A stretch of DNA of 64,000 nt from an uncultured Bacteroidales bacterium. GTDB lineage: Bacteria; Bacteroidota; Bacteroidia; Bacteroidales; P3. The stretch covers positions 3,782-67,781 of the forward strand of contig CAMHDJ010000007.1 of NCBI GenBank assembly GCA_946183915.1, read 5' to 3'. Positions 3,479 to 28,370 of this stretch are shown here, in pieces; position 1 is the first letter of the stretch; every line of letters starts with the position of its first letter. Under the pieces are notes generated by a model that was given only the letters and a program-made list of their open reading frames with translations, made no database searches and had not been told where the DNA came from. The position numbers and the translations under genes were made by a program.

Positions 3479-3495
3479 GTCGATAAGGTGTTGTG

Positions 3496-9539: not shown

Positions 9540-10457
9540 CTAGCGCTGTTCGACCGGGGCGGAGGTGCGGTCGGTCTTGCTGAGCACGATGAGTGTCACA
9601 GCACTCAGGATCAGCACAATACCTATCAACAAACGAATGGAAAACGGCTCGCCGAAGACGAAGATGCCGATGAGGACCGCCGTGGTGGGCTCGAGGGCAC
9701 CGAGGATGGCGGTGGGCGTGGAGCCGAGGTACTTGGCGGCGTAGACCATCATCACCAGCGCCATGATGGCGGGCACCACGGCCAGCCACGACACCCAGAG
9801 CCAGGCCCTGGGCGAGGGCGGCAGCATCAGGTGCTGGCCGCTCAGCAGGGCGAAGAGCGCCATGCCGGCGGCACAGTAGAAGAGCACGTAGAAGTTGATT
9901 TTGAACGACGACATGCGCAGTGGCGACTTGTCGACGACGATGATGTAGAGCGCATAGGTGAGCGCCGAGACGAGCACCAGCACGACGCCGACGGTGCTCA
10001 GGGCGCCGCCGGGGTCGCCCCAGTAGAGCAGCAGCACGCCCGCCAGCGCCAGGGCGATGGAGACCACCGTGGCCAGGCGTATCTTCTCCTGGAAGAAGAG
10101 GGCCATGATGGCGGCCGTCATGACCGGATAGGTGAAGAGGATGGTCGACGCCACGCCGGCAGGCATGTGGTGGAAGCTGAGGTAGAGGGTGAGCGACGAG
10201 GCGATGAAGAGCAGGCCGAGGGCGGTGAGGGTGCGGAACTCGGTGCGCGTCACGCGGAGGCTCTCTTTGCCCCGCAGCGCCTTGAAGGCCATGACGAGGG
10301 CTATCAGGACCCAAGCCAGGCCGAAGCGGTAGAAAAGAACCGAGGGCGTGTTCATGCCCTCGGCGTATAGGTTCAAGGCTCCCAGCGGGTTGGTGCCGTA
10401 GCATACGGCGGCACCCACGGCGCATACGGTGCCGATGAGTTTACGGTTGAGTGTCAT
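9540..10457 (-). CDS. EamA/DMT-family transporter
   Basis: A 305-aa polytopic membrane protein with ten hydrophobic segments in a two-EamA-repeat layout. It starts directly after the ftsZ stop. Confidence 0.8.
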   Translation of the reverse strand: MTLNRKLIGTVCAVGAAVCYGTNPLGALNLYAEGMNTPSVLFYRFGLAWVLIALVMAFKALRGKESLRVTRTEFRTLTALGLLFIASSLTLYLSFHHMPAGVASTILFTYPVMTAAIMALFFQEKIRLATVVSIALALAGVLLLYWGDPGGALSTVGVVLVLVSALTYALYIIVVDKSPLRMSSFKINFYVLFYCAAGMALFALLSGQHLMLPPSPRAWLWVSWLAVVPAIMALVMMVYAAKYLGSTPTAILGALEPTTAVLIGIFVFGEPFSIRLLIGIVLILSAVTLIVLSKTDRTSAPVEQR

Positions 10458-12068
10458 TTAGTCGGCTTGATCGCGGAAATAGGGGTTTTGCACCATGCGG
10501 CCGTCGGGGCGGATGGTGGCGTTGGACGATTCGCGCACCGACGAGTTGCGACCCTCAAAGAGCATCTCGTCGCTGATTTCGCGGGTGGTCATGCTTTGCA
10601 CGATGTCGGCACCGTTGGCGTTGTTGCGCAGCAAGTCGTGGATGCGGCGGATGCGCTCGGCGGCGGTGGTGACGTCGTTGTCGTTGCGGAACACGTTGAC
10701 GGGGTTGGCCTTGGGCTGCGGGGCGGGCTCGGGCTGGGAGGCCACCTCCTGGCGGGGCTCGCTGACGAGGTGGATCTCGTCGACCATGACGTCAACCTCG
10801 GTCTTGAACTCTTCCGCCTGGGGTTCGCTGGCGTGGCGCGGCTTCTCGAAGACGGGGTCGTCGTCGAGGGTGAAGACGTGCTTCTCGGCCGGGGCGGACT
10901 GTTCGACGACGGGGGCCACGGGGGCCACGACGTCGACCGGAGCGGGCTCCGGACGGTGGATGATCTCCATGCCGTCGGGGTCTTCGACCTTGGCGACGGG
11001 CTGCTCGACGGCGGCCTTGGGCTGCTCCTCGGGCAGGACGAAGGTCTTGGGCTCCTCGGGAAGGATCTTGCCCTTCTCGAAACCGGTGGCGATGAGGATC
11101 ACCTTCAGCTCGTCGCCGAGGCTCTCGTCGGGGCCGGCGCCCCAGATGATGTCGGCGGTGCCGTCGGTCTTGTCGAGCACATAGTCGGTGATTTCGGCCT
11201 GCTCGTCCATGGTCATCTCGTGCTCGGTGGAGTAGGTGAAGTAGAGCAACACGTTCTTGGCGCCGCTGATGTCGCTGTCGTCGAGGAGGACACTGGTGGT
11301 GGCAGCCTCGATGGCGTCGTGGGCGCGGTTCTCGCCGCGGCCGCTGCCGGTGCCCATGAGGGCGGTGCCGCTGTGCTCCATGACGGTGTTGACGTCCTGG
11401 AAGTCGCGGTTGACATAGGCGTTTTCGGTGATGATCTCGGCGATGCCTTTGGCGGCGGTGAGCAGCACGTCGTCGGCCATGCCGAAGGCTTCGCTGATGC
11501 GCATGTTGCCGAAGGTGCGGAGCTTGTCGTTGTTGATGACGATGATGGAGTCGACATGCTTGCGGAGCTCCTCGATGCCGGCCTCGGCCTGCTCGCGGCG
11601 GCGCTTGCCCTCAAAGCTGAAGGGGCGCGTGACGATGGCGACGACAAGGATCTTCTTGTTCTCGTCGTTGTCGAGGTCGATGCTCTTGGCGATCTCGGCG
11701 ATGACGGGGGCAGCGCCGGTGCCAGTGCCGCCGCCCATGCCGGCGGTGATGAAGAGCATCTGGGTGTTGTGGGCCAGGGCTTCGCGGATGTCGTCGGCTT
11801 TGTCCTGTGCGGCCTTGCGGGCGCGCTCGGGTTTGTTGCCGGCACCCAGGCCGAGGTCGCCCAGCGGGATCTTGTTGGGCACGGGCGAGGCGTTGAGGGC
11901 CTTCATGTCGGTGTTGCAGACGATGAAGTCGACACCCTCGATGCCGCGGTCGTACATGTGGTTGACGGCGTTGCCGCCACCGCCTCCGACACCGATCACT
12001 TTGATGTAGGACGACTGCCCTTTGGGCGAATCAAAGGTAAAAAAGGTGGAATTTGTGTTCTCTTCCAT
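10458..12068 (-). CDS. ftsZ: Cell division GTPase FtsZ
   Basis: GVGGGGGNAV and the GGTGTGAAP tubulin signature, followed by a long Pro/Glu-rich linker. Confidence 0.95.
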   Translation of the reverse strand: MEENTNSTFFTFDSPKGQSSYIKVIGVGGGGGNAVNHMYDRGIEGVDFIVCNTDMKALNASPVPNKIPLGDLGLGAGNKPERARKAAQDKADDIREALAHNTQMLFITAGMGGGTGTGAAPVIAEIAKSIDLDNDENKKILVVAIVTRPFSFEGKRRREQAEAGIEELRKHVDSIIVINNDKLRTFGNMRISEAFGMADDVLLTAAKGIAEIITENAYVNRDFQDVNTVMEHSGTALMGTGSGRGENRAHDAIEAATTSVLLDDSDISGAKNVLLYFTYSTEHEMTMDEQAEITDYVLDKTDGTADIIWGAGPDESLGDELKVILIATGFEKGKILPEEPKTFVLPEEQPKAAVEQPVAKVEDPDGMEIIHRPEPAPVDVVAPVAPVVEQSAPAEKHVFTLDDDPVFEKPRHASEPQAEEFKTEVDVMVDEIHLVSEPRQEVASQPEPAPQPKANPVNVFRNDNDVTTAAERIRRIHDLLRNNANGADIVQSMTTREISDEMLFEGRNSSVRESSNATIRPDGRMVQNPYFRDQAD

Positions 12069-12215
12069 GTGCTTTTATATTTCTATCTTACTGATAAAGA
12101 TGTCGTTACTTACTTTTTAACCACTACTATTGGCAACGTAAAATTACTAATAATTGCGCGAACAGGAGTCGTCTTTCTTGATTAGTTTTCAACAGTTTGC
12201 TGTGGATTTCGAATT

Positions 12216-13598
12216 TCACTCGTCGATACCCTCGTCGAAAACCGTCTTGAAGAAGTCGGTAAGCGCCTTGCCGAAGTCGCCCTCGCCGCGTTTCTTCTTC
12301 TTGCTCTTGGGGCTTTCGGCGGGCTGCTCGACGACCGGAGCTGCCGGTGCGGCGGGCATGTCGTCCATGTCGGCGAAGATGTCGAAGCCGCTTTTCTTCT
12401 TCACCTCCTTGGCGGGCTCGGGCTCGAGGTTCTCCTCGGCCTTCTCGAGACCGTAGAGCACCAGGCCGATACCGGTGGCATACATCGGGTGCATGAGCTC
12501 GTTGTAGTTGACGCTGTCGGGCTCGAGGTGCTCGTTGGGGATGCCGATGCGGGTGTCGGTGGCGGTGACAAGCTCGCAGAGGTCCTTAATGTTCTTCAGC
12601 TGGGCGCCGCCACCGGTGAGCACGATGCCGGCGATGAGCTTCTTGCCGAAGCCCGAAAGCTTGATCACATAGTCGATCTGCTCCATGATCATCTTGGTGC
12701 GGGCGTTGATGATACCGGCGAGGGTCTTGACGTAGATCTCGCGGGGAGCCTGGCTGCGGATGCCGGGAATGGAGATGATGTCGTTCTCGGAAACGGCCTG
12801 CACCAGGCAGGAACCGAACTTCACCTTGAGGCTCTCGGCCTGCTTGCGGAGGATGTTGCAGCCCTCGCGGATGTCGTTGGTGATGGCATTGCCGGCCAAC
12901 GGGAGGACGGTGGTGTCGCGGATGATGCGGTCGTGGAAGATGGCGATGTCGGTAGTGCCGCCACCGATGTCGACCATGGCCACGCCGGCGTCGCGGTCGC
13001 TGTCGTCGAGGACAGCCTTGGCCGAGGCCACAGGCTCGAGGACCACGCCTTTGATCTTCAGACCGGCACGCGAGACGGCCAGCTTGATGTACTGAAGATT
13101 CTGCACATTGCCGGTGACCATGTGGAAGTCGGCCTTGAGCACCTTGCCGGCCACGCCCACGGGGGGCACCTCGCGGCTGAGGGCCTCGTTGTCGACATAG
13201 TACTGCTGCGGGAAGACATGGATGATCTCCTCGCCGGGTTCGAGCATGGTGTTGTACTGGTCGTTGGTCAGATGGTCGACGTCCTCCTGCTCGATGAGCT
13301 CGTGTTCGGGCGGTATCATCACGCTGCCCTGGCTGGGACGCGACTTGATGTGCTGGCCGGCGATGCCGACCCACACCTCGTCGATGTCGACGTTGGCCTG
13401 CTCGGCGGCCTCGTCGACAGCGCGGCGAATGGCCTCGGAGGCATCTTTCACATTCTTGACCACCCCGTGTTCGACGCCGGTTGACTCGGTCTTGCCGAAG
13501 CCGAGGATTTTCACTCGTTCATTCTCGCCACGAACACCCACGAAGCATGCGATCTTGGTGGTGCCGATGTCGAGACCTACAATGATTTCAGTTCCCAT
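12216..13598 (-). CDS. ftsA: Cell division protein FtsA
   Basis: Actin-fold motifs VGLDIGTTKI and VDIGGGTTD. Located between ftsQ and ftsZ. Confidence 0.95.
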   Translation of the reverse strand: MGTEIIVGLDIGTTKIACFVGVRGENERVKILGFGKTESTGVEHGVVKNVKDASEAIRRAVDEAAEQANVDIDEVWVGIAGQHIKSRPSQGSVMIPPEHELIEQEDVDHLTNDQYNTMLEPGEEIIHVFPQQYYVDNEALSREVPPVGVAGKVLKADFHMVTGNVQNLQYIKLAVSRAGLKIKGVVLEPVASAKAVLDDSDRDAGVAMVDIGGGTTDIAIFHDRIIRDTTVLPLAGNAITNDIREGCNILRKQAESLKVKFGSCLVQAVSENDIISIPGIRSQAPREIYVKTLAGIINARTKMIMEQIDYVIKLSGFGKKLIAGIVLTGGGAQLKNIKDLCELVTATDTRIGIPNEHLEPDSVNYNELMHPMYATGIGLVLYGLEKAEENLEPEPAKEVKKKSGFDIFADMDDMPAAPAAPVVEQPAESPKSKKKKRGEGDFGKALTDFFKTVFDEGIDE

Positions 13599-13610
13599 AA
13601 TGTCTGTTGT

Positions 13611-14399
13611 TTATTTTGTTTCGTTTCTTTTCGTACAAACCACCTGATCGCGGTACTTGAGGCTGATGCGCGAGTAGGTGTCCCAGCCGGCGCGCGGCAT
13701 GCCCTTCCGGTAGAAGGAGAGCAAATTGGCAAACTTCTCCTCGAGGTTGTCGGCGTCGCCCAGCTCCACGACGTGGTTGCCCAGCTTGGGCACCATGAGC
13801 AGGTCGCCGTCGCGCTCGACGTACAGTTGGTCGATCAGGTCGCCATACTTGCTCTCGCTGTCGAGGAAGCAGGCCACACGCCAGAGGTCGGCCAGCTGGC
13901 GGTTGCCCGCCGCCGTGGCGGCAACGGTCCAGAGGCTGTCGGCCGGTACCGGCATGCGGAAGTCGCCCCCGGCCACCAGCACGTCGCACGAGCCGAGGTT
14001 CGAGGCGGGCATCAGGCAGCCTTCGGCGTCGAGGTAGAACTCGCGGCCCGCGTAGTAGAGGCGCACGATGGGGCGACGCTGTTTGGCACGCACCACCACC
14101 TGGCCGCTGACGCTGACCGAGGCGCTGACATCGCTGAGGTATGGCACCCGGGAGGCGGCCTGCACCACGGCATCGCGGTCGACCCCACCCACCGAGTGCT
14201 GCAGCAACGCCGGCACGGCGGCCAGGATGCTGTCGCGCACCGTCTGGTCGTCGACCAGCGGAGGGGTCTTGCCATAGCGGATGTTCACCTCGATCCCCCG
14301 CACCGCCGAGCGCGAGCGACTGACGTTGGCCACCACCACGAGCACCGCCAGCACGACGGCTCCCAGAAGGATCAGTAGTATTTTGACAGGGCGTTTCAT
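13611..14399 (-). CDS. ftsQ: Cell division protein FtsQ
   Basis: An N-terminal single TM segment followed by a POTRA-like region. Located between murC and ftsA. Confidence 0.8.
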   Translation of the reverse strand: MKRPVKILLILLGAVVLAVLVVVANVSRSRSAVRGIEVNIRYGKTPPLVDDQTVRDSILAAVPALLQHSVGGVDRDAVVQAASRVPYLSDVSASVSVSGQVVVRAKQRRPIVRLYYAGREFYLDAEGCLMPASNLGSCDVLVAGGDFRMPVPADSLWTVAATAAGNRQLADLWRVACFLDSESKYGDLIDQLYVERDGDLLMVPKLGNHVVELGDADNLEEKFANLLSFYRKGMPRAGWDTYSRISLKYRDQVVCTKRNETK

Positions 14400-15841
14400 A
14401 GCACTTGTTCTCTTAATACCGTTTCGAGACGCGGCACAAGCCGGTCGATATCGCCCGCGCCGAGGGTGACCACTACATCGGGACAGAGGGCGGGCACCAG
14501 CTCGAGCACCTGGTCGGGGGTGCAGAGGTACTTCGACATGGAGTCGACCTTGCGGAGCACCATGCTCGACGTGACGCCCAGGATGGGCTTCTCGCGGGCC
14601 GGATAGATGGGCATCATGATGAGCTCGTCGAGGGTGCCCAGCACCTCGGCAAACTGGTCGGCCAGGTCGCGCGTGCGGCTGTAGAGGTGGGGTTGGAAGA
14701 TACCCACGACACGCTTGCCCGGGTAGAGGTAGCGGATGGATTCCAGCGTGGAGGCAATCTCACGCGGATGATGGGCATAGTCGTCGATGTAGACCAGATC
14801 CTTCTCGCGGATGCGGTAGTCGAAGCGGCGCCGCACGCCGGCAAAAGTCTTCAGGCCGTGGCGCAGCTGGAACTGGTCGAGGCCACAGCTGAGGGCCACC
14901 GCAGCGGCCGCCACGGCATTCTCCACGTTGAAGAGGGCCGTGCCGTCGAGCTCGAGATCGAAGAGGACCCCGTCGGGAGTGCGCAGGTCGAAGAAGAGGT
15001 TGCCGTTATAGGTGCGCACGTTGATGGCATAGTAGTCGGCCTCGATGCCGCGGGCGGTGTAGGTAGAAATCGGGGTATGGAACTCGGGCTGGGCGGGATG
15101 ATGGGGTGCCAGCGGCGAGTGCTCGTGGTCATGGTCGTGGTCGTGATGGTGGTGAGCGCCGAACTCGACGTAGGGCTCACCATCCTGACGGACGAAGATT
15201 CCCTCTTTGAAGAAGAGCTTTCCGTCAGCATCCACCTGGTTGGCAAACTGGAGGTAGGCCTCGAGCATGTGCTCGTGGTCGCCGTAGACGTCCAGATGGT
15301 CGGGGTCGGTGGCGGTGATGACCGCCATGTGGGGGTGCAGCTGCAAGAAGGAGCGGTCGTACTCGTCGGCTTCGACCACCACGAAGTCGCTCTTGTTGTC
15401 GACATGCAGGTTGCTGTCGAAGTTCTTGCTGATGCCGCCCAGGAAAGCCGAGCAGCCACAGGGGGCCTGGCTCAGGAGGTGGGCAATCATGGTGCTCGTG
15501 GTGGTCTTGCCGTGGCTTCCGGCCACAGCGATGCAGCGTTTGCCACGGGTCAGTTCGCCCAACACCTGCGAGCGCTTCTCCATGCGCACGCCGCGACGCA
15601 GCAGTTCCTGCATCTCGCCGAGCTCGGCCGGCACGGCGGGGGTGTAGACCACCAGGTCGATAGCCTCGGGCAGCAGGTCGGGCCGGTCGTCGTAGTGCAC
15701 GGCAATCCCCTCGGCCTCCAGCTCGGCCGTCAGCGCACTCGGCGTGCGGTCATAGCCGCTCACCGTGTCGCCCCGCTGGTGGAAGAACCGCGCCAGCGCG
15801 CTCATCCCGATGCCTCCGATGCCTAGAAAGTAGTATCTCAT
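14396..15841 (-). CDS. murC: UDP-N-acetylmuramate--L-alanine ligase
   Basis: GIGGIGMSALA, AGSHGKTTTS (P-loop) and DDYAHHP motifs. It contains a His/Asp-rich extra segment. Confidence 0.95.
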   Translation of the reverse strand: MRYYFLGIGGIGMSALARFFHQRGDTVSGYDRTPSALTAELEAEGIAVHYDDRPDLLPEAIDLVVYTPAVPAELGEMQELLRRGVRMEKRSQVLGELTRGKRCIAVAGSHGKTTTSTMIAHLLSQAPCGCSAFLGGISKNFDSNLHVDNKSDFVVVEADEYDRSFLQLHPHMAVITATDPDHLDVYGDHEHMLEAYLQFANQVDADGKLFFKEGIFVRQDGEPYVEFGAHHHHDHDHDHEHSPLAPHHPAQPEFHTPISTYTARGIEADYYAINVRTYNGNLFFDLRTPDGVLFDLELDGTALFNVENAVAAAAVALSCGLDQFQLRHGLKTFAGVRRRFDYRIREKDLVYIDDYAHHPREIASTLESIRYLYPGKRVVGIFQPHLYSRTRDLADQFAEVLGTLDELIMMPIYPAREKPILGVTSSMVLRKVDSMSKYLCTPDQVLELVPALCPDVVVTLGAGDIDRLVPRLETVLREQVL

Positions 15842-15853
15842 AGTGGATTGTTG

Positions 15854-16966
15854 TCAGTTGACGGATATCAGTTTAGCAATTTGGTCCACAATCTTGTCGG
15901 CCGCGCCGCGGACAGCGAGGCGTTGCAGGGCAGCGCTCATCTGCTCGCGCTTGACGCTGTTCTCGAAGAGGTCGAGCACTTGCGGCAGGCAGTTGTGCTC
16001 GCAGTCGGCGTCGGGCACCATCAGGGCGGCCCCCTTGTCGACCAAGGCCATGGCGTTTTTCGTCTGGTGATCCTCAGCCACGTTGAGCGACGGCACCAGC
16101 ACCACGGGCTTGCCGACGATGCACAGCTCCGAGATGGCGATGGCGCCGGCCCGCGACACCACCACATCGGCCGCCGCATAGGCCATGTCCATGCGCTGAA
16201 TGAACTGGTGCACCTTGACCCATTCGCTCACGCCCGCCTCCTCGACGGCACGCACCGCCTCGTCGTACTGCCAGCGACCCGTCTGCCAAAGCAGTTGTAT
16301 CTTGTTCTCACGGAAGAAGTGCAAGTGGTTCATCACCATCGTGTTGATGGTGCGAGCCCCCAGACTGCCACCCACCGAGAGGAGCACACGCCCCTCGGGC
16401 GCGAGGCCGAAGTGGGCACGCCCTTCGGCGCGGCCGACCGTCATGTTCTCGATGTCGGCCCGCACAGGGTTGCCGGTGAAGACAATCTTCTGCGGAGGGA
16501 AGAAGCGATCCATGCCGTCGTAGGCCACACAGATGACCTTCGCCTCGCGAGCCAGAAGCTTGTTGGTCAGGCCGGCATAGGAATTCTGCTCCTGCAGCAG
16601 CGTGGGGAAGCCCAGCTGGGCCGCCGCCTTCAGGGTGGGCTCCGAAGCGAAGCCCCCCACCCCGACCACCACGTCGGGCTGGAACTCGCGCAGGATGGCC
16701 TTCACCCGGTGGTTGCTCTGCATCATGCGGAACGGGAGCTGCAGGTTCTTCACGATATTCCGGGGGGTCAGTTTGCGCTGCAAACCCGCAATGGGCAACC
16801 CCTTGATCTCGTAGCCGGCCGCCGGCACCTTCTCCATTTCCATGCGTCCCTCGGCGCCGACAAACAGAATGTCGGCCTCGGGCCAGCGCTTCTTGATCGC
16901 GTTGGCGATGGCCACCGCCGGGAATATATGTCCACCCGATCCTCCTCCACTTACGATTGCTTTCAT
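15854..16966 (-). CDS. murG: Undecaprenyldiphospho-muramoylpentapeptide beta-N-acetylglucosaminyltransferase
   Basis: GGGSGGHIFPAVAIA N-terminal motif, with a length and position typical of murG. Confidence 0.95.
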   Translation of the reverse strand: MKAIVSGGGSGGHIFPAVAIANAIKKRWPEADILFVGAEGRMEMEKVPAAGYEIKGLPIAGLQRKLTPRNIVKNLQLPFRMMQSNHRVKAILREFQPDVVVGVGGFASEPTLKAAAQLGFPTLLQEQNSYAGLTNKLLAREAKVICVAYDGMDRFFPPQKIVFTGNPVRADIENMTVGRAEGRAHFGLAPEGRVLLSVGGSLGARTINTMVMNHLHFFRENKIQLLWQTGRWQYDEAVRAVEEAGVSEWVKVHQFIQRMDMAYAAADVVVSRAGAIAISELCIVGKPVVLVPSLNVAEDHQTKNAMALVDKGAALMVPDADCEHNCLPQVLDLFENSVKREQMSAALQRLAVRGAADKIVDQIAKLISVN

Positions 16967-16994
16967 ATCTTCAGTTTCTTTTATTGTCTATAAT

Positions 16995-17052
16995 TCATCT
17001 TTTTTGTGCATCATCTCTGCATCCCCTCTGCATCATCTCTGCATCATGTCTG
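16995..17052. repeat. GCATC-phased 11-bp tandem repeats (same family as 25933..26075, opposite orientation)
   Basis: GCATC occurs at 17008, 17019, 17030 and 17041. The reverse complement contains gatgcagagatgatgcagaggggatgcag, identical to 26022-26050. Confidence 0.85.
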
Positions 17053-18252
17053 CTCTTCGGCAGCCAAAGGGCTGGGTTGAAGGGGGTCTGATGCCTGTTT
17101 GGAAACGGAGGGGTCACTGTTTTCAACTGCATAGACGTCGGCCGCCACCGACTGGATGATTCCAAGAGCCACACCCATAAACAGGTAGGCCGTACCGCCA
17201 TAGCTGATAAACGGGAGCGTCTGTCCCGTCACAGGCAGCACACCTACAGCCACACTCATGTTGACCAGCGCCTGCAGGTAGATCACCGTGCCGAGGCCGG
17301 CCACGGTGAGGGCTCCGAAACGGCCTTTGCAGCGCCAGGCCAGACGAATACAGCGGAAATAGAGTATGCTGTAGAGCAGGAAGACCACGATGCCGCCCAC
17401 CATACCCATCTCCTCGATGATGATGGCATAGATGAAGTCGTTGTGGGCCTGCGTCATGAGGCGGGCGTGGACCGTGTTGCCGATGCCCGCGCCGAAAACG
17501 CCTCCGCGGGCGATGGCCATACGGGCCATGTTCTCCTGCGTCAGCGCGTCGGGGTCGGGGTGCATCCAGTTGTCGATACGCTCGGCCCAGATGCCACTGC
17601 GGTGCAGCACCTCGCCGCCCTCGGCCTCGGCGCCGCTGTTGCCGCCGCGCGACATCAGAAGGAGCGCCACCATTCCCACAAAGACCACTCCCAGCAAGAG
17701 GCGCCACCAGTACTTGCGGTTGACGCCGCCGATGAGCATCATCAGATAGCACACCAGGAAGATAAGGGCCGCCATGGAGAAGTTCTCCGGCAGGATGAGG
17801 GCCACCACAATACCGACGTAGAGGAGCAGTTGGAGGAAGGTGCCCAGCTCGGCCACCTGGTCTTTCTTGATGGCCAACATGCGGGCCACGAAGACCACAA
17901 GGACAATCTTTGCGATCTCCGACGGCTGGAACTGACCGATGACGGGGATGCGGAACCAGCGGCCTCCCTGCAGCGCCAGCATCACCGCCAGCAGCACCAG
18001 CGTCAGCCAGTAGCCCAGCATGGCAAAGCGCGAGAAGAAGCGATAGTTGACCCGCGACATCAAGATGACTACCACATAGGTGGCCGCCACAATCACGAGG
18101 TGCTTCAGGAAGAGACCCGTGGGCATGGTGCCGGGTAGCGAATAGGCGTAGAGGCCGATCGAGCTGTAGACCTCGACCAGCGAGATGATGCTGAGCAGCA
18201 GGAATACCACCCAGATCGTCTTGTCTCCACGGAATGCTTTTGATATCTTCAT
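17044..18252 (-). CDS. ftsW: Lipid II flippase / SEDS protein FtsW
   Basis: Starts MKISKAFRGDKTIWVVFLLLS. It is a polytopic SEDS-type protein with a PFISYGGTA motif. The upstream 48 codons of the ORF are rejected as an extension. Confidence 0.9.
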   Translation of the reverse strand: MKISKAFRGDKTIWVVFLLLSIISLVEVYSSIGLYAYSLPGTMPTGLFLKHLVIVAATYVVVILMSRVNYRFFSRFAMLGYWLTLVLLAVMLALQGGRWFRIPVIGQFQPSEIAKIVLVVFVARMLAIKKDQVAELGTFLQLLLYVGIVVALILPENFSMAALIFLVCYLMMLIGGVNRKYWWRLLLGVVFVGMVALLLMSRGGNSGAEAEGGEVLHRSGIWAERIDNWMHPDPDALTQENMARMAIARGGVFGAGIGNTVHARLMTQAHNDFIYAIIIEEMGMVGGIVVFLLYSILYFRCIRLAWRCKGRFGALTVAGLGTVIYLQALVNMSVAVGVLPVTGQTLPFISYGGTAYLFMGVALGIIQSVAADVYAVENSDPSVSKQASDPLQPSPLAAEEQT

Positions 18253-18791
18253 AGTTCGTTGACTTCGCGGCGGAAAGATTCGCCCTGTTGACGGGTCGAA
18301 AGACCGTTGTAGCAAGCCGGCGAGTAGACGACCCGTACCTCGTCGTCGGTCTGGTAGCGATAGGCCTGTTGCAGGGCTTCGGCCAGGGTGGCACAACGCA
18401 CGATGGTGGGGATGATTCCGCGGAAGGTGTGCTGCATGCGGTCCTCGGCGTCGCCGACCACCAAGAGCATACGCACCTTGCGCAACGCCGGAGGCACGAG
18501 GCGGCTGTAGTCGGCCGTCTGGTCGTTAGCGTCGGCAATCCAGATCAGGCCACCCTGGAGGGTCTCGAGGGTGTACCACGTGGCATTGATGGTGCGGGCA
18601 GCGGCATCGTTGATATACTCACGTCCCCGGATGCGTGCCACAAACTCGAGGCGGTAGCGGGTGTTCTCCAGGTGGTTGAAGCAGGAACGCAATCCGGCAT
18701 CGCGCATGGCCTTCAGCCGTTGCACGTCGATCCCGGCCAGCCCGGTGTGTACTCTGTCGCGGCCCTGTAAGGCCATAGTTTCAATAGTCAT
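18249..18791 (-). CDS. MurD C-terminal-domain-only protein (truncated murD homolog, 180 aa)
   Basis: It occupies the murD slot between mraY and ftsW. It aligns by eye to the last third of MurD (YINDAAARTIN versus INDSKATN; VVYSPACYNGLS...QGESF versus LLSPACAS.DQF..RG..F). No Rossmann or P-loop domain is present. Confidence 0.6.
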   Translation of the reverse strand: MTIETMALQGRDRVHTGLAGIDVQRLKAMRDAGLRSCFNHLENTRYRLEFVARIRGREYINDAAARTINATWYTLETLQGGLIWIADANDQTADYSRLVPPALRKVRMLLVVGDAEDRMQHTFRGIIPTIVRCATLAEALQQAYRYQTDDEVRVVYSPACYNGLSTRQQGESFRREVNEL

Positions 18792-18830
18792 AACGATAGG
18801 TTGATCTATGATGGGTATGTTGTTTTGTTT

Positions 18831-20027
18831 TTATCGCAGCTTGAGGGTCGAGAGGGTGAAGATGGCTAGCAAGATAGAGATGATGATGAACCGCATGACT
18901 ACCTTCTCCTCGGCCACCCCTTTTTTCTGGTAGTGGTGATGGAGGGGAGTCATGAGGAAGGGCCGCTTCTCGACCGGCACCGGCACGCCGACAGGCAGTT
19001 TGTGCTTACGGCGATAGCGCTTGCAGCCAGTGGTCTGAATGATAACCGAGAGGTCCTCGACCAGGTAGATTCCACAAAGCAGGGGCAGCAGGAGCTCCTT
19101 GCGAATGAGAATGGCAAAGACAGCAATGATGCCGCCGATGGCCAACGAGCCCGTATCGCCCATGAAGATCTCGGCCGGATGGGTGTTGAACCAGAGGAAG
19201 CCTAGGGTGGCTCCCACAAAGGCAGAGCTGAAGATGGCCAGCTCGCCGATGTTGGGAAGGTACATAATGTTGAGGTAACCGGCCATGATGACGTTGCCGC
19301 TGACCCATGCCAAGAGAGCCAGGGCGCCACCGTTGACGGCGGCCACTCCGGTGGCAATGCCGTCGATGCCATCGGTCAGGTTGGATGCATTGCTCACAGC
19401 GGTAATGACCAATATCACCACAAGAACGAAGATCACCCAGGCATATTGCGTGGCCCACGGGCCCATCCAGCTGACGAGCCACGTGTAGTCGAACTCGTTG
19501 TTCTTGACAAAGGGTATGGTGGTCTTCAGCGGATCGGTGATGTCGGGGTGGAACGTGATGAGCAACCCCACCACCAGGCCCAGCAGCACCTGTCCCAAAA
19601 CCTTGTACTTGCCCGGCAGACCGGCCTTGCCACGGGTTTTCTTCAGGTAGTCGTCCAGGAAGCCGACCAGTCCCATCCACACCGTTGTACCCAGCATGAT
19701 CTGGACATAGATGTTGTCCAACTTGGCAAACAGGAGTGTAGGTATAACGATGGCCATCAGGATGAGCAGACCGCCCATGGTGGGAGTCTTGGCCTTACGG
19801 CTGGCCCCTTCGAGGCCCAACTCGGTGCGCACCTCGTCCATCATGCCCAACTTGTTCTGCATCCAGCGGATAAACGGACGTCCCAGGAGGAGCATGATGA
19901 GAAGCGACGTCACCATGCTGGCCGCCGCACGGAAGGAGATGTACTGGAATACACCCGCTCCCGGGAAATCCACCGCGCTGTTCAACCAATCAAATAGTGA
20001 ATATAACATATCTATTGTATATTTCAA
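18831..20027 (-). CDS. mraY: Phospho-N-acetylmuramoyl-pentapeptide transferase
   Basis: PGAGVFQYISFRAA, TPTMGG, NLTDGIDG and a C-terminal TLKLR. Confidence 0.95.
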   Translation of the reverse strand: MKYTIDMLYSLFDWLNSAVDFPGAGVFQYISFRAAASMVTSLLIMLLLGRPFIRWMQNKLGMMDEVRTELGLEGASRKAKTPTMGGLLILMAIVIPTLLFAKLDNIYVQIMLGTTVWMGLVGFLDDYLKKTRGKAGLPGKYKVLGQVLLGLVVGLLITFHPDITDPLKTTIPFVKNNEFDYTWLVSWMGPWATQYAWVIFVLVVILVITAVSNASNLTDGIDGIATGVAAVNGGALALLAWVSGNVIMAGYLNIMYLPNIGELAIFSSAFVGATLGFLWFNTHPAEIFMGDTGSLAIGGIIAVFAILIRKELLLPLLCGIYLVEDLSVIIQTTGCKRYRRKHKLPVGVPVPVEKRPFLMTPLHHHYQKKGVAEEKVVMRFIIISILLAIFTLSTLKLR

Positions 20028-21469
20028 TTAGCTAATTCCTTTTCCAGTTCCTCCACATCGTCGAAGTGGGAGCGCACTCCGTTCACCTCTTGGTACTTCT
20101 CGTGACCCTTGCCGGCCACCAGCACGATGTCGCCCTCGCGGGCCATCATGCAGGCCGTGCGGATGGCCTGACGGCGGTCGGTAATACGGACCACATGGCT
20201 GAGCTGTTCAGCGCTGAGGCCTGCTTCCATTTCGTCAAGGATGGCATCGGGGCTCTCTGTGCGGGGGTTATCGCTCGTGAGCACCACTTTGTCACTCCCC
20301 TCGACAGCAATCTTGGCCATCTCGGGCCGCTTCGTGCGGTCGCGGTCACCGCCACAACCCACCACGGTGATCAGCAGTTGGCTGGAACGGCGTATCTGGT
20401 CGATGGTCTCAATGACGTTTTGAAGGGCGTCGGGAGTGTGCGCATAGTCGACGATAGCAGTGATGCCTCGGCCACTGACATACTGGAACCGTCCCGGGGC
20501 GGCCTCGAGAAGACTCAGCAGACGCAGTGCGTCGTCGTCACCAATGCCGCTGAGGACAGCGGCAGCATAGATGGCGGTGAGGTTGTAGGCATTGAAGCGC
20601 CCCACCAGACGGCACCACAGCTCGCGGCCGTTGATGGAGAGATGCATTCCTTCGAAAGTGTCCTCAATCACCCGGCAGTGGTAGTCGGCCTGGTGTTGCA
20701 GACCGTAGGTGTACACCTTGGCCTGCGTGTTCTGTACCATCACCCGGCCGTTCTTGTCATCCACATTGACCAGTGCCCAGGCGTCCTTGGGCAGCGAATC
20801 GAAGAATCCCTTTTTGGCAGCAATGTAGTTTGCCATCGTCTTGTGGAAATCCAAGTGGTCATGGGTGATGTTGCTGAAGATGGCACCCGCAAAACGTACC
20901 CCTGCGATACGGTGCTGCACCACGGCATGGCTACTGACCTCCATGAAAGCATACTGGCAACCAGCGTCAACCATGCGGCGAAGCAACTGGTTTAACTCCA
21001 GCGCATCAGGGGTAGTATGTCCCGTGGCAAGCTCCTCCTCGTCGATTTTATTGACGATGGTCGAGACCAGTCCCACATGATAGCCCATCATGCGGAACAT
21101 ACGGTGCAGCAGCGTGACGGTGGTCGTCTTGCCATTGGTTCCGGTGATGCCGACCAACTTCAGCTGTTCCGACGGGTGTCCATAGTAGTTGGCGGCCATC
21201 AGTCCCAGTGCACGACTGCTGTCCGGCACCTTGACATAACTGACACCGTCGGTTGTCGATGCGGGTAATTCTTCACACACAATGGCCACAGCCCCACTCT
21301 CGATGGCTCCACCAATGAAGGTGTGCCCGTCGACCTTGGTGCCACGCTGGGCCACAAAGAGGGTTCCTTTGCCCACACGGCGCGAATCGAACTGAAGATC
21401 GTTCACTTCCACATCGGTCGGGCCACTCACTTCGGCCTCTATTCCTTTTATTATATCTCTCAGTTTCAT
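20024..21469 (-). CDS. murE: UDP-N-acetylmuramoyl-L-alanyl-D-glutamate--2,6-diaminopimelate ligase
   Basis: GITGTNGKTTT P-loop, DYAHTPDAL and a DNPR motif (SDNPRTE). Confidence 0.95.
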   Translation of the reverse strand: MKLRDIIKGIEAEVSGPTDVEVNDLQFDSRRVGKGTLFVAQRGTKVDGHTFIGGAIESGAVAIVCEELPASTTDGVSYVKVPDSSRALGLMAANYYGHPSEQLKLVGITGTNGKTTTVTLLHRMFRMMGYHVGLVSTIVNKIDEEELATGHTTPDALELNQLLRRMVDAGCQYAFMEVSSHAVVQHRIAGVRFAGAIFSNITHDHLDFHKTMANYIAAKKGFFDSLPKDAWALVNVDDKNGRVMVQNTQAKVYTYGLQHQADYHCRVIEDTFEGMHLSINGRELWCRLVGRFNAYNLTAIYAAAVLSGIGDDDALRLLSLLEAAPGRFQYVSGRGITAIVDYAHTPDALQNVIETIDQIRRSSQLLITVVGCGGDRDRTKRPEMAKIAVEGSDKVVLTSDNPRTESPDAILDEMEAGLSAEQLSHVVRITDRRQAIRTACMMAREGDIVLVAGKGHEKYQEVNGVRSHFDDVEELEKELAN

Positions 21470-21480
21470 GTCGTCTTCTG

Positions 21481-23769
21481 TTATTTCATTGTCAATACCA
21501 CCACACTTCCTTTCTTGGCGGCCACACCTGCCTGGGGCTGTTGTGCCGCTACCTTGCCGTATCCGTTGACGCGAGCACGGTAGCCCATCGCCTCCAGCAT
21601 TCCCACAGCGTCTTTGGCTGTCATTCCCTGGCAGTTAGGCACCTGTCCTTCGGTCGGGACGTATGGCACATAGCGGCCGGGGACACTGTCGTTGCCCTCA
21701 CGGAAGACCACCCAGCGGCTGGCCGAATCGGACGAGGGTAGCAGCTGGCGCAACATCCTGTACAGGCGGCGCATCTCGCTCTGGTCGCCACGAGCCACCA
21801 CCGGTCGCTGCTCCGCCTTGGTACTGTCGAGCTCCAGTTGGGGCCATACCGAACGCACCGCGCCGTCACTCAGGCGCTTGTCCACAGCCACCACACAATC
21901 GGAGATCGCCTTGAAGACCTCGGCTGCCTGTCGGCCATAGTAGGGAATGTCCTCCAACACCACCAGGCAGGTGTAGCGGGGATTCTCCGACGGGAAGAAG
22001 CCGCAGAAGGAGGCATTGTAGCGGCGCACATTGGCATAGCTGTGAACAGCCGTACCCGTCTTGCCGGCGATGCCGTAGGTATTGTTCTTGATGTTGTTAC
22101 CCGTACCGTGTTCCACCACCCCTTCGAGCATGGATCGCATCAGCATGGCACTCTCCCGACTGCACATGCGCGGGTTGAGCACCACCGGACGCGTCTCCAC
22201 CAGCCTGTCGCCATGCATCACCCCCTTGCAGAACAGGGGCTTCACCATGCGGCCCCCGGCGCCCAGTCCGTTGTAGAACGTGATGAGCTGCAGGGCCGAG
22301 ATTCGGGTGGAGTAGCCGTAGCAGAAGTTGAGAAAGTCGCGGTTCGAGGCGTGGAGGTCATTAATATATGTATTATATTCTTTAGCCTTCACATCGGGAT
22401 TGAGTTTGCCGTAGGGGAACATCCGCTCCACCAGCTGGCGCAGCGTGTCGCGCCGGTCGGCGTAGAGCTGCCAGCCCAGATCGCTCATACCCACGTTGGA
22501 CGACTGTTCGATCACCTCGCGCACGCTCAGCGAGTCACGCCCCTTGAGGGTATGGTCGTCCTTGATCTCGCCATACTTGCCCCCGAAGTTCTTGTATCCC
22601 GCCTTGAGTTGCATAGCGGTGTCGATCTTGACGCCCGGATCGTTGAGCATTGCCGTGAGGATGACCGTCTTGAAGGTGGAGCCAGGCTCGTAGACGTCGC
22701 TGACCGCCACGTTGCGGTCGCGCACCTCCAGGTAGTCGTGCACCGACGTGTCGACGGCCAGGTTGGCGCAGGCCAGAACATAGCCCGTCTGCATCTCCAT
22801 CAGGATGGCACAGCCTGCCTGCCCGCCAAAGCGGCGCAAGGCACCGCGCAACGAACTCTCTGCGATGTCCTGGTAGCGGGTATCGATGGTCGACACGATG
22901 TCGCGCCCGTCCACTTTGGCCTGCAGCACGATGGTGTCCACACGGTCCTGGTCGGTGCGTTGCGGCACCTCGCGGCGGCCATGCTGCTGGTCGGGAAGCC
23001 AGATACCCTTGGTCAGGCGGCGGCGACGGTAGGTGCCGTCCTGGCCTCGCAGGATGCTGTCGTAGGCTCCTTCCAGGCCGGTGTAGGTGTCGGCGTCGCG
23101 CTGGTTCTGGAATCCGATGGTGTTCTTGGCCATGTTGCCATAGATGTGGGCACGCTCCTGGCGGATGACGCTCTGCCCGTCGACCTCGCGCACCACGCCG
23201 CGCTTCCAGCCCGGAAGACGCATCACCTCGAGCCACACCGAGTAGGGCACGTGGCGCTCGACCAGGAAGCAGCGGCGGGGTTTCTCCTTGCTGCGCTCGG
23301 CGATCAGGCGGTCGCGGTAGTAGAGGGCGTCGTGCTGAGGCATCGCATCGGCCAGCATCACGCACATGCTGTCGAGGTAGAGGTAGAAGTTGGAGTCGGT
23401 GATGGGGCCACTCTCCACGGGGCGTCCCTTGCGGTCGTACTTCGGGTGGCCGTGTTCGTCGAGTTCCACCCGGTTGAAGAGATCCAGATAGAGGTCGCAC
23501 TCGGTGACCGTCGTGGCCAGAATCTTGCCGTCGCTCGAGTAGATGACGCCGCGCCGGGCGGGATCGGTGCGCACATCGGCCTCGCGTTTCTCGCCGCGGG
23601 CGCGCCACTCGTCGCCGTGCACCCACTGTATGTTGATGATACTCGCCACGATGGCCACACCCACCCCCAGCGTCAGCAGCAGGTAGAGCGCCGTCATGCC
23701 GCGCGTCATCCGTTTGTTATTATCTTTATTTTTATTATTGTCGCTCATAGCTCTTGTCTCTTTACTCAT
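21481..23769 (-). CDS. ftsI: Penicillin-binding protein 3-type transpeptidase, with a PASTA-like C-terminus
   Basis: TM anchor, PBP dimerisation region, transpeptidase motifs STFK, SSN and KTGT, and a C-terminal MTAKDAVGMLEAMGY segment. Confidence 0.9.
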   Translation of the reverse strand: MSKETRAMSDNNKNKDNNKRMTRGMTALYLLLTLGVGVAIVASIINIQWVHGDEWRARGEKREADVRTDPARRGVIYSSDGKILATTVTECDLYLDLFNRVELDEHGHPKYDRKGRPVESGPITDSNFYLYLDSMCVMLADAMPQHDALYYRDRLIAERSKEKPRRCFLVERHVPYSVWLEVMRLPGWKRGVVREVDGQSVIRQERAHIYGNMAKNTIGFQNQRDADTYTGLEGAYDSILRGQDGTYRRRRLTKGIWLPDQQHGRREVPQRTDQDRVDTIVLQAKVDGRDIVSTIDTRYQDIAESSLRGALRRFGGQAGCAILMEMQTGYVLACANLAVDTSVHDYLEVRDRNVAVSDVYEPGSTFKTVILTAMLNDPGVKIDTAMQLKAGYKNFGGKYGEIKDDHTLKGRDSLSVREVIEQSSNVGMSDLGWQLYADRRDTLRQLVERMFPYGKLNPDVKAKEYNTYINDLHASNRDFLNFCYGYSTRISALQLITFYNGLGAGGRMVKPLFCKGVMHGDRLVETRPVVLNPRMCSRESAMLMRSMLEGVVEHGTGNNIKNNTYGIAGKTGTAVHSYANVRRYNASFCGFFPSENPRYTCLVVLEDIPYYGRQAAEVFKAISDCVVAVDKRLSDGAVRSVWPQLELDSTKAEQRPVVARGDQSEMRRLYRMLRQLLPSSDSASRWVVFREGNDSVPGRYVPYVPTEGQVPNCQGMTAKDAVGMLEAMGYRARVNGYGKVAAQQPQAGVAAKKGSVVVLTMK

Positions 23770-24191
23770 AGTTCATACGGCGGGCCGCTGGTGATGCCGA
23801 CACCGGTTCCCTTGAGGTCCTCGGCAATCTGCGAGATCTTGACGCTCTGCTGGTATTGCTTCTGCATCTGGATCCGGTGCTCGCGCAGGTAGTTGATGCG
23901 CTCCTCGGTGGCCGCCTTCTCGCGGCTGAGATTCTCCACGCGGTAGCGGTTGCCGACGATGAGCAGCAGGTAGAGGAGACACAGCAGCACCAGCGGTATC
24001 TGCTTGAGGACCACACGCGCGCTGAGGGCATCGCCACCCAGCACACGACCCAGGCCACGGGCGGCCTTGGCGCTGCGCCGGGGGGTGCGGGGCGCTGCCG
24101 CAGCGGCCGGCGACGGCGACGCCGCCTCCACCTGCGGACGCGGCTCCTCGAGGCCTTCTTCGACCACTTTATCCCTGAACTTGTTTCCCAT
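23766..24191 (-). CDS. ftsL: FtsL-like cell division protein
   Basis: A small bitopic protein with a single TM (IPLVLLCLLYLLLIV) followed by a coiled coil. It lies between rsmH and ftsI, and its stop overlaps the ftsI start (ATGA). Confidence 0.7.
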   Translation of the reverse strand: MGNKFRDKVVEEGLEEPRPQVEAASPSPAAAAAPRTPRRSAKAARGLGRVLGGDALSARVVLKQIPLVLLCLLYLLLIVGNRYRVENLSREKAATEERINYLREHRIQMQKQYQQSVKISQIAEDLKGTGVGITSGPPYEL

Positions 24192-24220
24192 CTTTATCTT
24201 TAAACTTTAATCCTTCATCT

Positions 24221-25168
24221 TTAATCCTTTAACCTTCTCATCCCCACCCTCAGGCGAGCGCTGCGGGCGCGGCTGTTGACAGCCACCTCCTCGTCGCTGG
24301 CCTGCACGGCCCCGCGACTCACCATCTGCATCGTCGACAGGGGGTTGCCGTAGAAGTCTTTTTCCACCCGCCCCTCGAAGTTGCCCGTCTTCATGAAGTT
24401 CTTTACCAGGCGGTCTTCGAGCGAGTGGTAGCTGATCACCACCAGGCGTCCCTCGGGGGTCAGCAGCTCGGCGGCCTGCTCGAGCATGGCTTTCAGGGCC
24501 TCCAGCTCGCCGTTCACCTCGATGCGGAGGGCCTGGAACAGCATGGCCAGGTACTTGTTCTCCATGCCTCGGGGCAGGTGGCGGCCGACGGCGTCGCGCA
24601 GCTGGCCCGTGGTGTCGATCGAGGCCAGGGCGCGGGCCTTCACGATAGCGCGGGCCATCTGGCGCGCATTGGGCAGCTCGCCGTAGAGGTGCAGCAGGCG
24701 TGCGAGCTCCTCTTCGTCGAGGCTGTTCACCAGGTCGCGGGCCGACACGGGCGACTGGCGGTCCATCCGCATGTCCAGCTCGCCGTCCAGGCGCGTGGAG
24801 AAGCCCCGCTCGGCGGTGTCGAACTGGTGGCTGCTCACCCCCAGGTCGGCCAGCACCCCGTCGACCTGCCGCACGCCGTGCAGCCGCAGAAACGACTTCA
24901 GGTACCTGAAATTCTCGCCGATGAACGTGAACTCGGCCTCGCTCTCGCAGCTCTCCGCTCTCCACTCGCCGCTCTCCACGCGGCGGGCGGCGTCGGGATC
25001 CTGGTCGAAGGCATAGAGGCGGCCGCCGCGTCCCAGCAGCTCCAGGATGGCACGCGAATGGCCGCCGCCGCCGAAGGTCACGTCGACATAGGTGCCTTCG
25101 GGGCGGATCTGCAATCCGTCAATCGCTTCGGTGAGCATCACCGGCCTGTGGTAGTCATTGTTCGTCAT
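24221..25168 (-). CDS. rsmH: 16S rRNA (cytosine1402-N4)-methyltransferase
   Basis: HRPVMLTEA, DVTFGGGGHS, DLGVSSHQFD and ISYHSLEDR motifs. Confidence 0.95.
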   Translation of the reverse strand: MTNNDYHRPVMLTEAIDGLQIRPEGTYVDVTFGGGGHSRAILELLGRGGRLYAFDQDPDAARRVESGEWRAESCESEAEFTFIGENFRYLKSFLRLHGVRQVDGVLADLGVSSHQFDTAERGFSTRLDGELDMRMDRQSPVSARDLVNSLDEEELARLLHLYGELPNARQMARAIVKARALASIDTTGQLRDAVGRHLPRGMENKYLAMLFQALRIEVNGELEALKAMLEQAAELLTPEGRLVVISYHSLEDRLVKNFMKTGNFEGRVEKDFYGNPLSTMQMVSRGAVQASDEEVAVNSRARSARLRVGMRRLKD

Positions 25169-25613
25169 CGTGCAACCGTCCCAGCAGCTCCTCCGCCCGC
25201 ACAGCGAAGTCGCCTGATTTAGCGTTCATTTCGTCGTAGGTCTTGCGGTCCCAGAGCTCGATGAACTTGCCGGTCGATTGCAGCACTACCTCCTTGGCCC
25301 CCGCCACCAGGGCCTTCTGCTCGGCAGGCACCAGCAGGCGGTCGTTCGAGTCGAGCTCGATGATGTTGCCTTCGGTGAGCTTGCGCAGCAGTTCGCGGTC
25401 CTCGCGGCGGTAAGGATTCAGTCTGTCTTGGAGTTTTTCCACTTCCTCCCTGAAACTGGCATAGGTCCACAGCTCCAAACACTCGGCATAGATACTCTGG
25501 CGGATCACAAAGCGCCCGTCCTCGCTCTCCAACTGCCTCTTCAGGGCAATCGGGAACTTGAAACGGCCGTTCGAATCGACCTTACAGTACTCTTTTCCAA
25601 GTATTAACGCCAT
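25155..25613 (-). CDS. mraZ: Transcriptional regulator MraZ
   Basis: A 152-aa product with two SpoVT/AbrB-like halves (DSNGRFKFP and DSNDRLLVP). It is the first gene of the dcw cluster. Confidence 0.95.
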   Translation of the reverse strand: MALILGKEYCKVDSNGRFKFPIALKRQLESEDGRFVIRQSIYAECLELWTYASFREEVEKLQDRLNPYRREDRELLRKLTEGNIIELDSNDRLLVPAEQKALVAGAKEVVLQSTGKFIELWDRKTYDEMNAKSGDFAVRAEELLGRLHDDEQ

Positions 25614-28328: not shown

Positions 28329-28334
28329 AAAACA

Positions 28335-28366
28335 TTTGCCCACGTGAGTAAAAAATCGTATCTTTG
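28335..28366 (+). promoter_or_regulatory. Bacteroidota sigma-A promoter (-33 TTTG, 20 nt, -7 TATCTTTG)
   Basis: TTTG at 28335-28338 and TATCTTTG at 28359-28366, immediately upstream of the ATG at 28371. Confidence 0.55.
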
Positions 28367-28370
28367 CATC

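Follow-up and report, generated by a model that had tools for sequence, protein, structure and literature searches.

The window analyzed here, a stretch of 64,000 nucleotides (64 kb) from an uncultured Bacteroidales bacterium, carries in the murD slot of its division and cell wall (dcw) gene cluster a single intact open reading frame (ORF) on the minus strand, flanked by mraY and ftsW, which starts with ATG and encodes only 180 amino acids (18249-18791). MurD, the UDP-N-acetylmuramoyl-L-alanine:D-glutamate (UDP-MurNAc-L-Ala:D-Glu) ligase, is regarded as essential, as universally built of three domains and as an antibiotic target, and few bacterial gene orders are as conserved as the position of murD between mraY and ftsW. 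The short protein is new in being a Mur ligase descendant reduced to domain 3 in the murD slot, a homolog of MurD that fails the score, architecture and catalytic-residue tests for the enzyme. We give an even chance to the reading that it is a non-catalytic, stand-alone partner-binding MurD C-domain protein and that the D-Glu ligase is encoded outside the dcw cluster. Beyond what a first-pass annotation of this DNA had described, the protein and its close homologs (the window family) are one branch of a larger, undescribed Bacteroidota family of stand-alone MurD C-domain proteins.

The slot is made up of the following parts.

18831-20027, minus strand: mraY, the upstream neighbour, 398 amino acids (TIGR00445, 284 bits)
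18792-18830, minus strand: spacer of 39 nt between the mraY stop and the start of the short ORF (sequence, open-frame limits)
18249-18791, minus strand: short ORF for a stand-alone MurD C-terminal-domain protein (solo form), 180 amino acids (TIGR01087 and our own MurD profile)
18249-18252, minus strand: ATGA, the TGA of the short ORF overlapping the ATG of ftsW (sequence)
17044-18252, minus strand: ftsW, the downstream neighbour (PF01098, 207.7 bits; TIGR02614, 231.6 bits)

The first-pass annotation had placed a single MurD C-domain ORF of 180 amino acids between an mraY stop and an ftsW start about 580 bp apart. The ORF list, TIGR01087 and a MurD hidden Markov model (HMM) of our own all agree with this, and the distance measures 578 nt. 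The in-frame stop it had seen 13 codons upstream of the ATG is real and is the TAA of mraY itself, since the two genes share a frame. Because the mraY spacer is only 39 nt, the missing ~255 codons cannot fit upstream of the short ORF. The ATGA that it had taken for coupling to ftsW is present in the sequence and suggests that the two genes are translationally coupled; in the relatives L002-L010, described below, there is either the same overlap or a gap of 4-40 nt before ftsW.

Against TIGR01087 (murD) the short ORF scored 68.5 bits (E=5.6e-19), residues 23-160 matching model positions 283-419 of 441, and it fell below the equivalog cutoff of 211.95 bits. Its match to Pfam Mur_ligase_C (PF02875) reached 25.9 bits, under the gathering threshold of 28.4, and several close relatives bear a precomputed match to this family. 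Our own HMM, built from 62 full-length Bacteroidota MurDs and comprising 449 positions, aligned to it over positions 259-449. No dedicated family for the protein was found in NCBIfam, Pfam or PADLOC, and source annotations of its relatives read 'hypothetical protein', 'cyanophycin synthetase' or 'UDP-N-acetylmuramoylalanine-D-glutamate ligase'. The structure prediction that the first-pass annotation had proposed was made with AlphaFold from an alignment of 136 sequences, without Met1, and gave a mean predicted local distance difference test score (pLDDT) of 86.4 and a predicted TM-score of 0.80. In a Foldseek search of the PDB with an earlier model, the top 33 matches were MurD, followed by MurE, MurT, MurC and MurF; the superposition on MurD 7u35 covered domain 3 with a root mean square deviation of 2.1 Å over 146 columns (E=5e-9). 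As modelled, the protein thus has the Mur-ligase domain 3 fold (Mur_ligase_C). In terms of MurD it is the end of domain 2 (last strand and helix) plus the whole of domain 3, distributed as follows.

18738-18791, minus strand: residues 1-18 (MTIETMALQGRDRVHTGL), a remnant with the last beta-strand of domain 2 and a degenerate G-K-H-N-x-Y-N ATP loop
18663-18725, minus strand: residues 23-43, equivalent of the final helix in domain 2 of MurD (helix 22-42 by DSSP, model without Met1)
18252-18662, minus strand: residues 44-180, predicted MurD domain 3 fold (Mur_ligase_C; AlphaFold, Foldseek)
18594-18611, minus strand: N61-D62-A63-A64-A65-R66, a rebuilt pocket loop in place of the invariant MurD N-D-S-K-A-T

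By gene position, between mraY and ftsW in the dcw cluster, the protein would be counted as MurD. The three-domain architecture of the enzyme is not there: the short ORF has neither the N-terminal UDP-binding domain nor the central P-loop ATPase domain, and for this reason the protein cannot be a ligase on its own. Both domains had been reported missing in the first-pass annotation, and none was detected by our MurD HMM in the six frames of the window. No systematic shift of the isoelectric point was found.

Few parts of the window family are better conserved than its N-terminal segment, MTIETLAxQG (column conservation within residues 1-18: M.95, T.91, I.86, E.71, T.92, L.87, Q.79, G.92). Its equivalent in full-length MurD is the last beta-strand ahead of the G-K-H-N-x-Y-N ATP loop, which we take, from the E. 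coli structure, to be a strand of the small antiparallel sheet of domain 2. In the window family H267/N268/N271 of that loop are changed to D/R/T. Despite the conservation, model residues 1-17 had a pLDDT below 50 in both AlphaFold runs, and the segment is predicted to be disordered on its own. In the helix that follows, R280, C292 and F293 (E. coli numbering) are derived with respect to full-length MurD and common to a family of solo proteins of 182 amino acids treated below.

Residues contacting ATP or D-Glu in E. coli MurD were tabulated with literature numbering and compared in 63 full-length Bacteroidota MurDs from the loci analysed, 181 full-length Bacteroidota MurDs, 119 members of the window family and 108 solo proteins of 182 amino acids. 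Thirteen of them (H267, N268, N271, H301, R302, N316, D317, S318, K319, T321, N322, G345 and K348) were 100% invariant in the 63 MurDs and 99-100% conserved in the 181, where S318, K319 and T321 were present in every sequence (181/181), S415 and R425 in 180 of 181, and positions 416 and 422 were aromatic (F or Y) in 99-100%. Among the 119 window-family members the only contact residues to survive are R302, N316, D317, D351, S410 and P411. H267, N268, N271, H301, S318, K319, T321, N322, K348, S415 and R425 are replaced (S318 by A in 119, K319 by A in 117, T321 by R in 118, H301 by Y in 107); position 345 has A instead of G in 108, K348 varies from member to member and the S415-L416-D417 loop has become shorter. 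Twelve contacts were followed in the window protein itself (N268, N271, H301, R302, D317, K319, T321, K348, S415, L416, F422, R425), and it retains only R302 and D317; the others are R13, T16, Y46, A64, R66, Q91, N162, T166 and Q169, with L416 deleted. The loss of the canonical D-Glu motifs (SKAT, S-x-D-x-F) noted in the first-pass annotation is therefore borne out by the column counts of the 119 members and extends to the ATP contacts. The motif pairs it had drawn by eye also hold in the alignment: Y46/R47 correspond to H301/R302, N61-D62-A63-A64-A65-R66-T67 to N316-D317-S318-K319-A320-T321-N322, and SPACYN to SPACAS, followed by the deletion at 416-417. The replacements A63, A64, R66, Y46 and A88 are themselves fixed in the window family. 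Since the substitutions form a new fixed motif, ND-A-A-[A/S]-R, the pocket has been rebuilt and not just eroded.

A search of a collection of 5.8 billion proteins gave 269 homologous clusters, of which the closest 120 were listed; these best 120 of 269 measured 152-181 amino acids (177-181 in 115 of them) and had identities of 62-99%. Scanning a single genome for each GTDB species recovered the same gene in 14 further species-level metagenome-assembled genomes (MAGs) of uncultured Bacteroidales (L002-L015), from yak, deer, sheep, goat, horse, chicken and human gut. In L002-L015 the gene is intact (176-180 amino acids), the order is murE-mraY-X-ftsW-murG-murC with X the short gene, and identities to the window protein lie between 85% and 39%; even at the lowest of these the length and the two termini are preserved. 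The ratio of nonsynonymous to synonymous substitution rates (dN/dS, Nei-Gojobori) was 0.05-0.22 for the short ORF, with dS close to saturation, and 0.04-0.31, the same range, for murE, mraY, ftsW, murG and murC on the same genome pairs. Purifying selection thus acts on the short protein as strongly as it does on the essential genes beside it. The marks of a pseudogene were not found, as all 15 of 15 orthologs are intact, and these together with the dN/dS values exclude a neutrally decaying relic. The comparison of synteny and the dN/dS estimate had both been suggested in the first-pass annotation, which had regarded the ORF as maintained rather than decaying; the gene lies in the same slot in the 14 MAGs, its evolution is not neutral and its length is preserved, as this view predicted. 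The two findings it had named as arguing otherwise, a collapsed assembly segment and a neutrally evolving ORF unique to this assembly, are both contradicted by the 14 genomes, the metagenome contigs and the dN/dS values. Separately, one locus (L086, ENA contig_83315) has a dcw cluster with nearly every gene in 2-4 pieces, as is typical when a long-read assembly has not been corrected. Some database entries for short 'MurD' fragments may stem from contigs of this kind or from contig ends (P0243, P0492, P0508, P0519, P0530) and are to be kept apart from genuine short forms.

An exhaustive profile search of 1.84 billion representative proteins yielded many further proteins of 177-184 amino acids starting at the same Met. 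We define the solo family by a length of 176-184 amino acids, a Met aligned to E. coli L256, an N-terminal MxIExLAxQG, a position as the sole MurD-like gene between mraY and ftsW, and the loss of H267/N268/N271 and K348; the window protein has all of these features. Solo forms in the order mraY-X-ftsW with an X of ~182 amino acids were found for the proteins P0154, P0169 and P0200 and at the genome loci L025, L044 and L072. L044 lies on the complete 5.27-Mb chromosome OY820914.1 (5,265,860 bp), from which the protein P0411 comes. With the L044 protein as query, the top 120 matches listed were almost all exactly 182 amino acids long (54-74% identity); the 182-aa solo form is thus a large family in environmental Bacteroidota. 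No description of 182-aa solo MurD-C proteins was found in the literature or the family libraries searched, and full-text literature searches, as well as papers on dcw clusters and Mur chimeras, yielded nothing on truncated, split or stand-alone MurD C-domains.

The 182-aa and window families are alike in starting at a conserved internal Met, in occupying the slot mraY-X-ftsW and in having lost the H-N-x-x-N ATP loop and K348; in the 108 solo proteins of 182 amino acids H267, N268, N271 and K348 are gone. They differ in the D-Glu pocket. The 182-aa proteins keep NDS[K/R]ATN and SPxCxSFDxFxxYxxRG (S318, T321, N322, S415, F416, F419, Y422 and R425, with K or R at 319), whereas the window family has NDAA[A/S]R and a shortened loop, and the 182-aa proteins are only ~30-35% identical to the window protein. 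Four residues, T260, R280, C292 and F293, are common to both families and were not seen in full-length MurD; these shared derived residues hint at common descent. In a tree of MurE, MraY and MurG the solo lineages were scattered among lineages with full-length murD, and in domain trees (neighbour-joining, 100 bootstraps, ~180 columns) only the monophyly of the window family was supported (100/100). Neither a single origin of the solo form nor several is favoured by the domain trees.

A related arrangement was found in 7 of 83 loci (82 fetched loci and the window) and in 6 of 80 metagenome loci, where a full-length murD is directly followed by a MurD-C paralog and then ftsW. They belong to some Bacteroidia/Flavobacteriales MAGs; the former are L042, L056, L058, L064, L076, L078 and L079 (at about 10,000-11,100 in each), the latter L098, L111, L122, L123, L129 and L146. 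These paralogs make up a second class of stand-alone MurD tails, likewise undescribed. Measured from stop to stop, the frames of these tandem paralogs span 158-192 amino acids, the proteins themselves ~155-175. Like the window protein they are stand-alone MurD domains 3 directly upstream of ftsW that have lost ATP-side residues. In the tandem paralogs R302, D317, K319 and K348 are gone, and H301, T321, S415, an aromatic residue at 416, F419, Y422 and R425 are kept. They differ from it in having an intact murD alongside and in starting later (HMM positions 283-312 versus 259-268), without the MxIExLAxQG strand, and they group apart from the window family in the neighbour-joining tree, without bootstrap support. 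Because these paralogs are maintained beside an intact murD, a stand-alone MurD C-domain must have a use other than ligation. In L076 the co-resident full-length murD is unusually divergent, its distance to the short ORF being 1.18 compared with a median of 0.51 among full-length MurDs. Another protein from the representative search, P0174 (397 amino acids), starts with a TIR-like domain (PADLOC PDC-S66 / ThsB-like matches) and ends with a canonical MurD C-terminal domain in which the NDSKATN and SPACASFD motifs are intact; either this is a defence protein that senses through a MurD tail, or the assembly is chimeric.

In the explanation that we favour, the 180-aa protein would be expressed, non-catalytic and descended from the 3' part of murD, would be translated together with ftsW and would act by binding rather than by catalysis. 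Its folded domain 3 would present a remodelled, Arg-containing pocket, in which Arg66 stands where Thr321 was and both lysines are lost, so that it may hold a different anionic ligand or be closed. The conserved, intrinsically unfolded N-terminal strand would dock onto a partner by beta-strand addition, the partner probably being a component of the peptidoglycan-precursor or divisome machinery encoded nearby. UDP-MurNAc-L-Ala:D-Glu ligation would be encoded outside the dcw cluster, the simplest source being another murD that may be divergent, and a conventional murD elsewhere in the genome is the most likely backdrop. An ancestral murD may then have lost its first ~255 codons once catalysis was covered elsewhere, the tail being retained since in Bacteroidota a MurD C-domain is useful by itself, as is shown by the tandem paralogs adjoining intact murD genes.

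Several observations weigh against this explanation. The 182-aa family keeps the D-Glu side of the pocket (T321, S415, F416, F419, Y422, R425) under selection, which would agree as well with an enzyme in two pieces that is still catalytic in those lineages, and both the partner and the ligand of the short protein are putative. The 64 kb of the window contain no full-length murD, and at 20 solo-form loci none was found up to 10 kb from the slot. Profile A3, which covers the N-terminal and middle domains of MurD, gave 8000 matches in the set of 5.8 billion proteins, the 120 best of which were all MurDs of ordinary length (~445 amino acids). Against JGI metagenome contigs, the same profile gave 80 of 80 loci with the order mraY-murD-ftsW and none outside a dcw cluster. 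There is accordingly no positive sign of a murD outside dcw among the matches listed; as only the best 80 to 120 matches were covered, these scans are uninformative for a divergent or foreign murD.

Other searches were also aimed at a further ligase. In the six frames of the window our MurD HMM found no other MurD-like frame, only cross-matches to MurE and MurC. In those of L002-L015, L025, L044, L072, L076, L082 and L083 it matched nothing but MurE, MurC and the short ORF, the one exception being L076 with its full-length tandem murD. The L044 protein query returned no full-length paralog on chromosome OY820914.1 among the matches listed. Two GC-rich full-length proteins were considered as copies located elsewhere and set aside: P0202 sits in an ordinary marine dcw locus and P0170 lies on a 1.8-kb contig that is uninformative. 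Pfam annotation of the rest of the window showed no alternative ligase, and Rfam and tRNA scans of the window found nothing. That a large and abundant set of uncultured Bacteroidales, among them the rumen and gut clade and the free-living lineage with the 5.27-Mb chromosome, does without a conventional MurD and performs the D-Glu step with an unrecognised or two-piece enzyme is improbable in our estimate.

The two-piece version of this idea survives best among the rivals and is itself unlikely. Here the short protein would be the C-terminal piece of a split MurD, the N-terminal and ATPase fragment being encoded elsewhere and its domain 2 completed by the conserved strand. The break indeed falls inside domain 2 instead of between two domains, the strand that remains matches full-length MurD in conservation and yet is predicted to be disordered alone, and the 182-aa family, with 108 diverse members, keeps R302 and D317 in addition to S318, T321, N322, S415, F416, F419, Y422, R425 and K/R319. 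However, all solo forms have lost H267, N268 and N271 of the ATP loop that they would have to supply, and the window family has also lost K319, T321, K348, S415-D417, F422 and R425. The complementary piece was not seen either: an ORF limited to the N-terminal and middle domains of MurD is absent from the window and from the 10 kb flanking the slot in both directions at the 20 solo loci, and there is no genuine one among the top 120 protein matches or the 80 metagenome loci. The single match to A3 without a C-domain, P0388, comes from a frameshift-ridden long-read contig, and no locus with adjacent N and C fragments was found as a fission intermediate.

Clearly less probable is a route with no MurD-type enzyme at all, in which the second stem-peptide residue would be added by an unrecognised enzyme or route with the short protein as its accessory. 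The abundance of the solo form (nearly all of the top 120 matches to the L044 query having 182 amino acids), its presence on a complete chromosome of 5.27 Mb and the failure of the MurD N-terminal and middle domain scans to give a murD outside dcw among the best 80 to 120 matches are what such a route would lead one to see. The argument is one from absence, as a divergent or foreign murD would be missed among so many best matches, and the MurC and MurE of the cluster look ordinary, for which reason the UDP-MurNAc-L-Ala-D-Glu intermediate is still to be expected.

A murD remnant that is inert and kept only as a translated spacer, preserving ftsW expression through coupling or internal promoters, is very unlikely. 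The ATGA shared with ftsW and the close packing of the genes in the relatives agree with it, but the amino-acid constraint is as strong as in the essential neighbours, length and both termini persist at 39% identity, new invariant residues arose in the pocket, and an analogous short paralog is kept beside intact murD, where no spacer is needed. An artefact of assembly or binning, with a segment of ~800 bp collapsed, has practically no chance, as it is refuted by the same structure in 14 independent species-level MAGs and in many independent metagenome and Logan contigs of up to 577 kb, and no point in its favour was found.

The dcw cluster around the slot, whose gene order is also kept in L002-L015, comprises the following genes besides those given above.

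10458-25613, minus strand: dcw cluster mraZ-rsmH-ftsL-ftsI-murE-mraY-[short ORF]-ftsW-murG-murC-ftsQ-ftsA-ftsZ (ORFs, Pfam matches)
25155-25613, minus strand: mraZ
24221-25168, minus strand: rsmH
23766-24191, minus strand: ftsL
21481-23769, minus strand: ftsI
20024-21469, minus strand: murE
15854-16966, minus strand: murG
14396-15841, minus strand: murC
13611-14399, minus strand: ftsQ
12216-13598, minus strand: ftsA
10458-12068, minus strand: ftsZ

Two of the neighbours have features of their own. MraY of the window (18831-20027), of the closer relatives in L002-L015 and of L087 measures 380-398 amino acids, compared with 412-430 in other Bacteroidota loci, and is thus ~30 residues shorter; the MraY of the more distant clade members L009, L013 and L014 aligns over 427-433 columns, like that of the other Bacteroidota loci. 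Though short, the window MraY spans the TIGR00445 model end to end. MurC (14396-15841, minus strand) has at residues ~228-250, within its middle domain, an insert rich in His, Asp and Glu (HHHHDHDHDHEH...), which by its appearance resembles a metal-binding loop. An insert of similar composition was seen in the window, L002-L008, L012, L014 and L015, weakly in L011, and was absent from L009, L010 and L013 and from seven other Bacteroidota MurCs (L016, L025, L044, L056, L070, L072, L083).

Elsewhere in the window, a single ORF of 759 amino acids (34722-37001, plus strand) encodes a complete sigma-54 with its AID, core-binding and DNA-binding domains, followed by a C-terminal Peptidase_M23 domain; a product of this type, of 757 amino acids, was also called close to the dcw cluster of relative L087. 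Either a sigma factor and a peptidoglycan hydrolase domain have been fused, which would be unusual, or two genes follow each other without an intervening stop. Positions 1-4000 form an island of low GC content (0.44-0.45 versus ~0.6 elsewhere) with a phage-type integrase (29-826) and a BspA-type leucine-rich-repeat surface protein (1484-3478), probably acquired horizontally. Two DUF6266 proteins lie 39 kb apart (8712-9524, plus strand; 48273-49223, minus strand), and several proteins sorted by the type IX secretion system (T9SS) flank the dcw cluster (IgGFc_binding and CHU_C at 26136-32075; Por_Secre_tail at 39942-41921 and 49690-51999).

A conserved protein consisting of domain 3 thus occupies the murD slot in a clade of abundant rumen and gut Bacteroidales and in a much larger set of environmental Bacteroidota. 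If a normal murD lies elsewhere in these genomes, this would be a clear example from nature of how a domain of an enzyme is taken over as a partner protein without catalysis in a cell-wall and division cluster and, as a similar paralog coexists with intact murD, would hint at a second role of the MurD C-domain in Bacteroidota. If there is none, these organisms carry out the D-Glu step of peptidoglycan synthesis in another way. Because the family is unannotated or mislabelled as a full ligase, pathway reconstructions from these MAGs will be wrong at the D-Glu step.

A precedent for a reorganized D-Glu step is MurD2/MurL of Xanthomonas, an L-Glu ligase with an epimerase. MurD2 is a full-length three-domain ligase, and nothing of that kind was seen at the window locus. 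Compared with MurD itself (E. coli b0088; TIGR01087; PDB 1uag/2uag/7u35), the short protein is homologous to residues ~256-437, has the same predicted domain 3 fold, lies in the same mraY-ftsW slot and retains the contacts R302, N316, D317, S410 and P411; it is without domain 1 and nearly all of domain 2 including the P-loop, and has lost N268, N271, H301, K319, T321, K348, S415, L416, F422 and R425. MurT of the MurT/GatD amidotransferase (PDB 6gs2, 6h5e), a weak structural match in Foldseek (E~4e-4), differs in being catalytic and in keeping the ATPase middle domain, whereas the short protein is a C-terminal domain only, but it resembles the role that we propose in being derived from a Mur ligase and in working only with a partner subunit.

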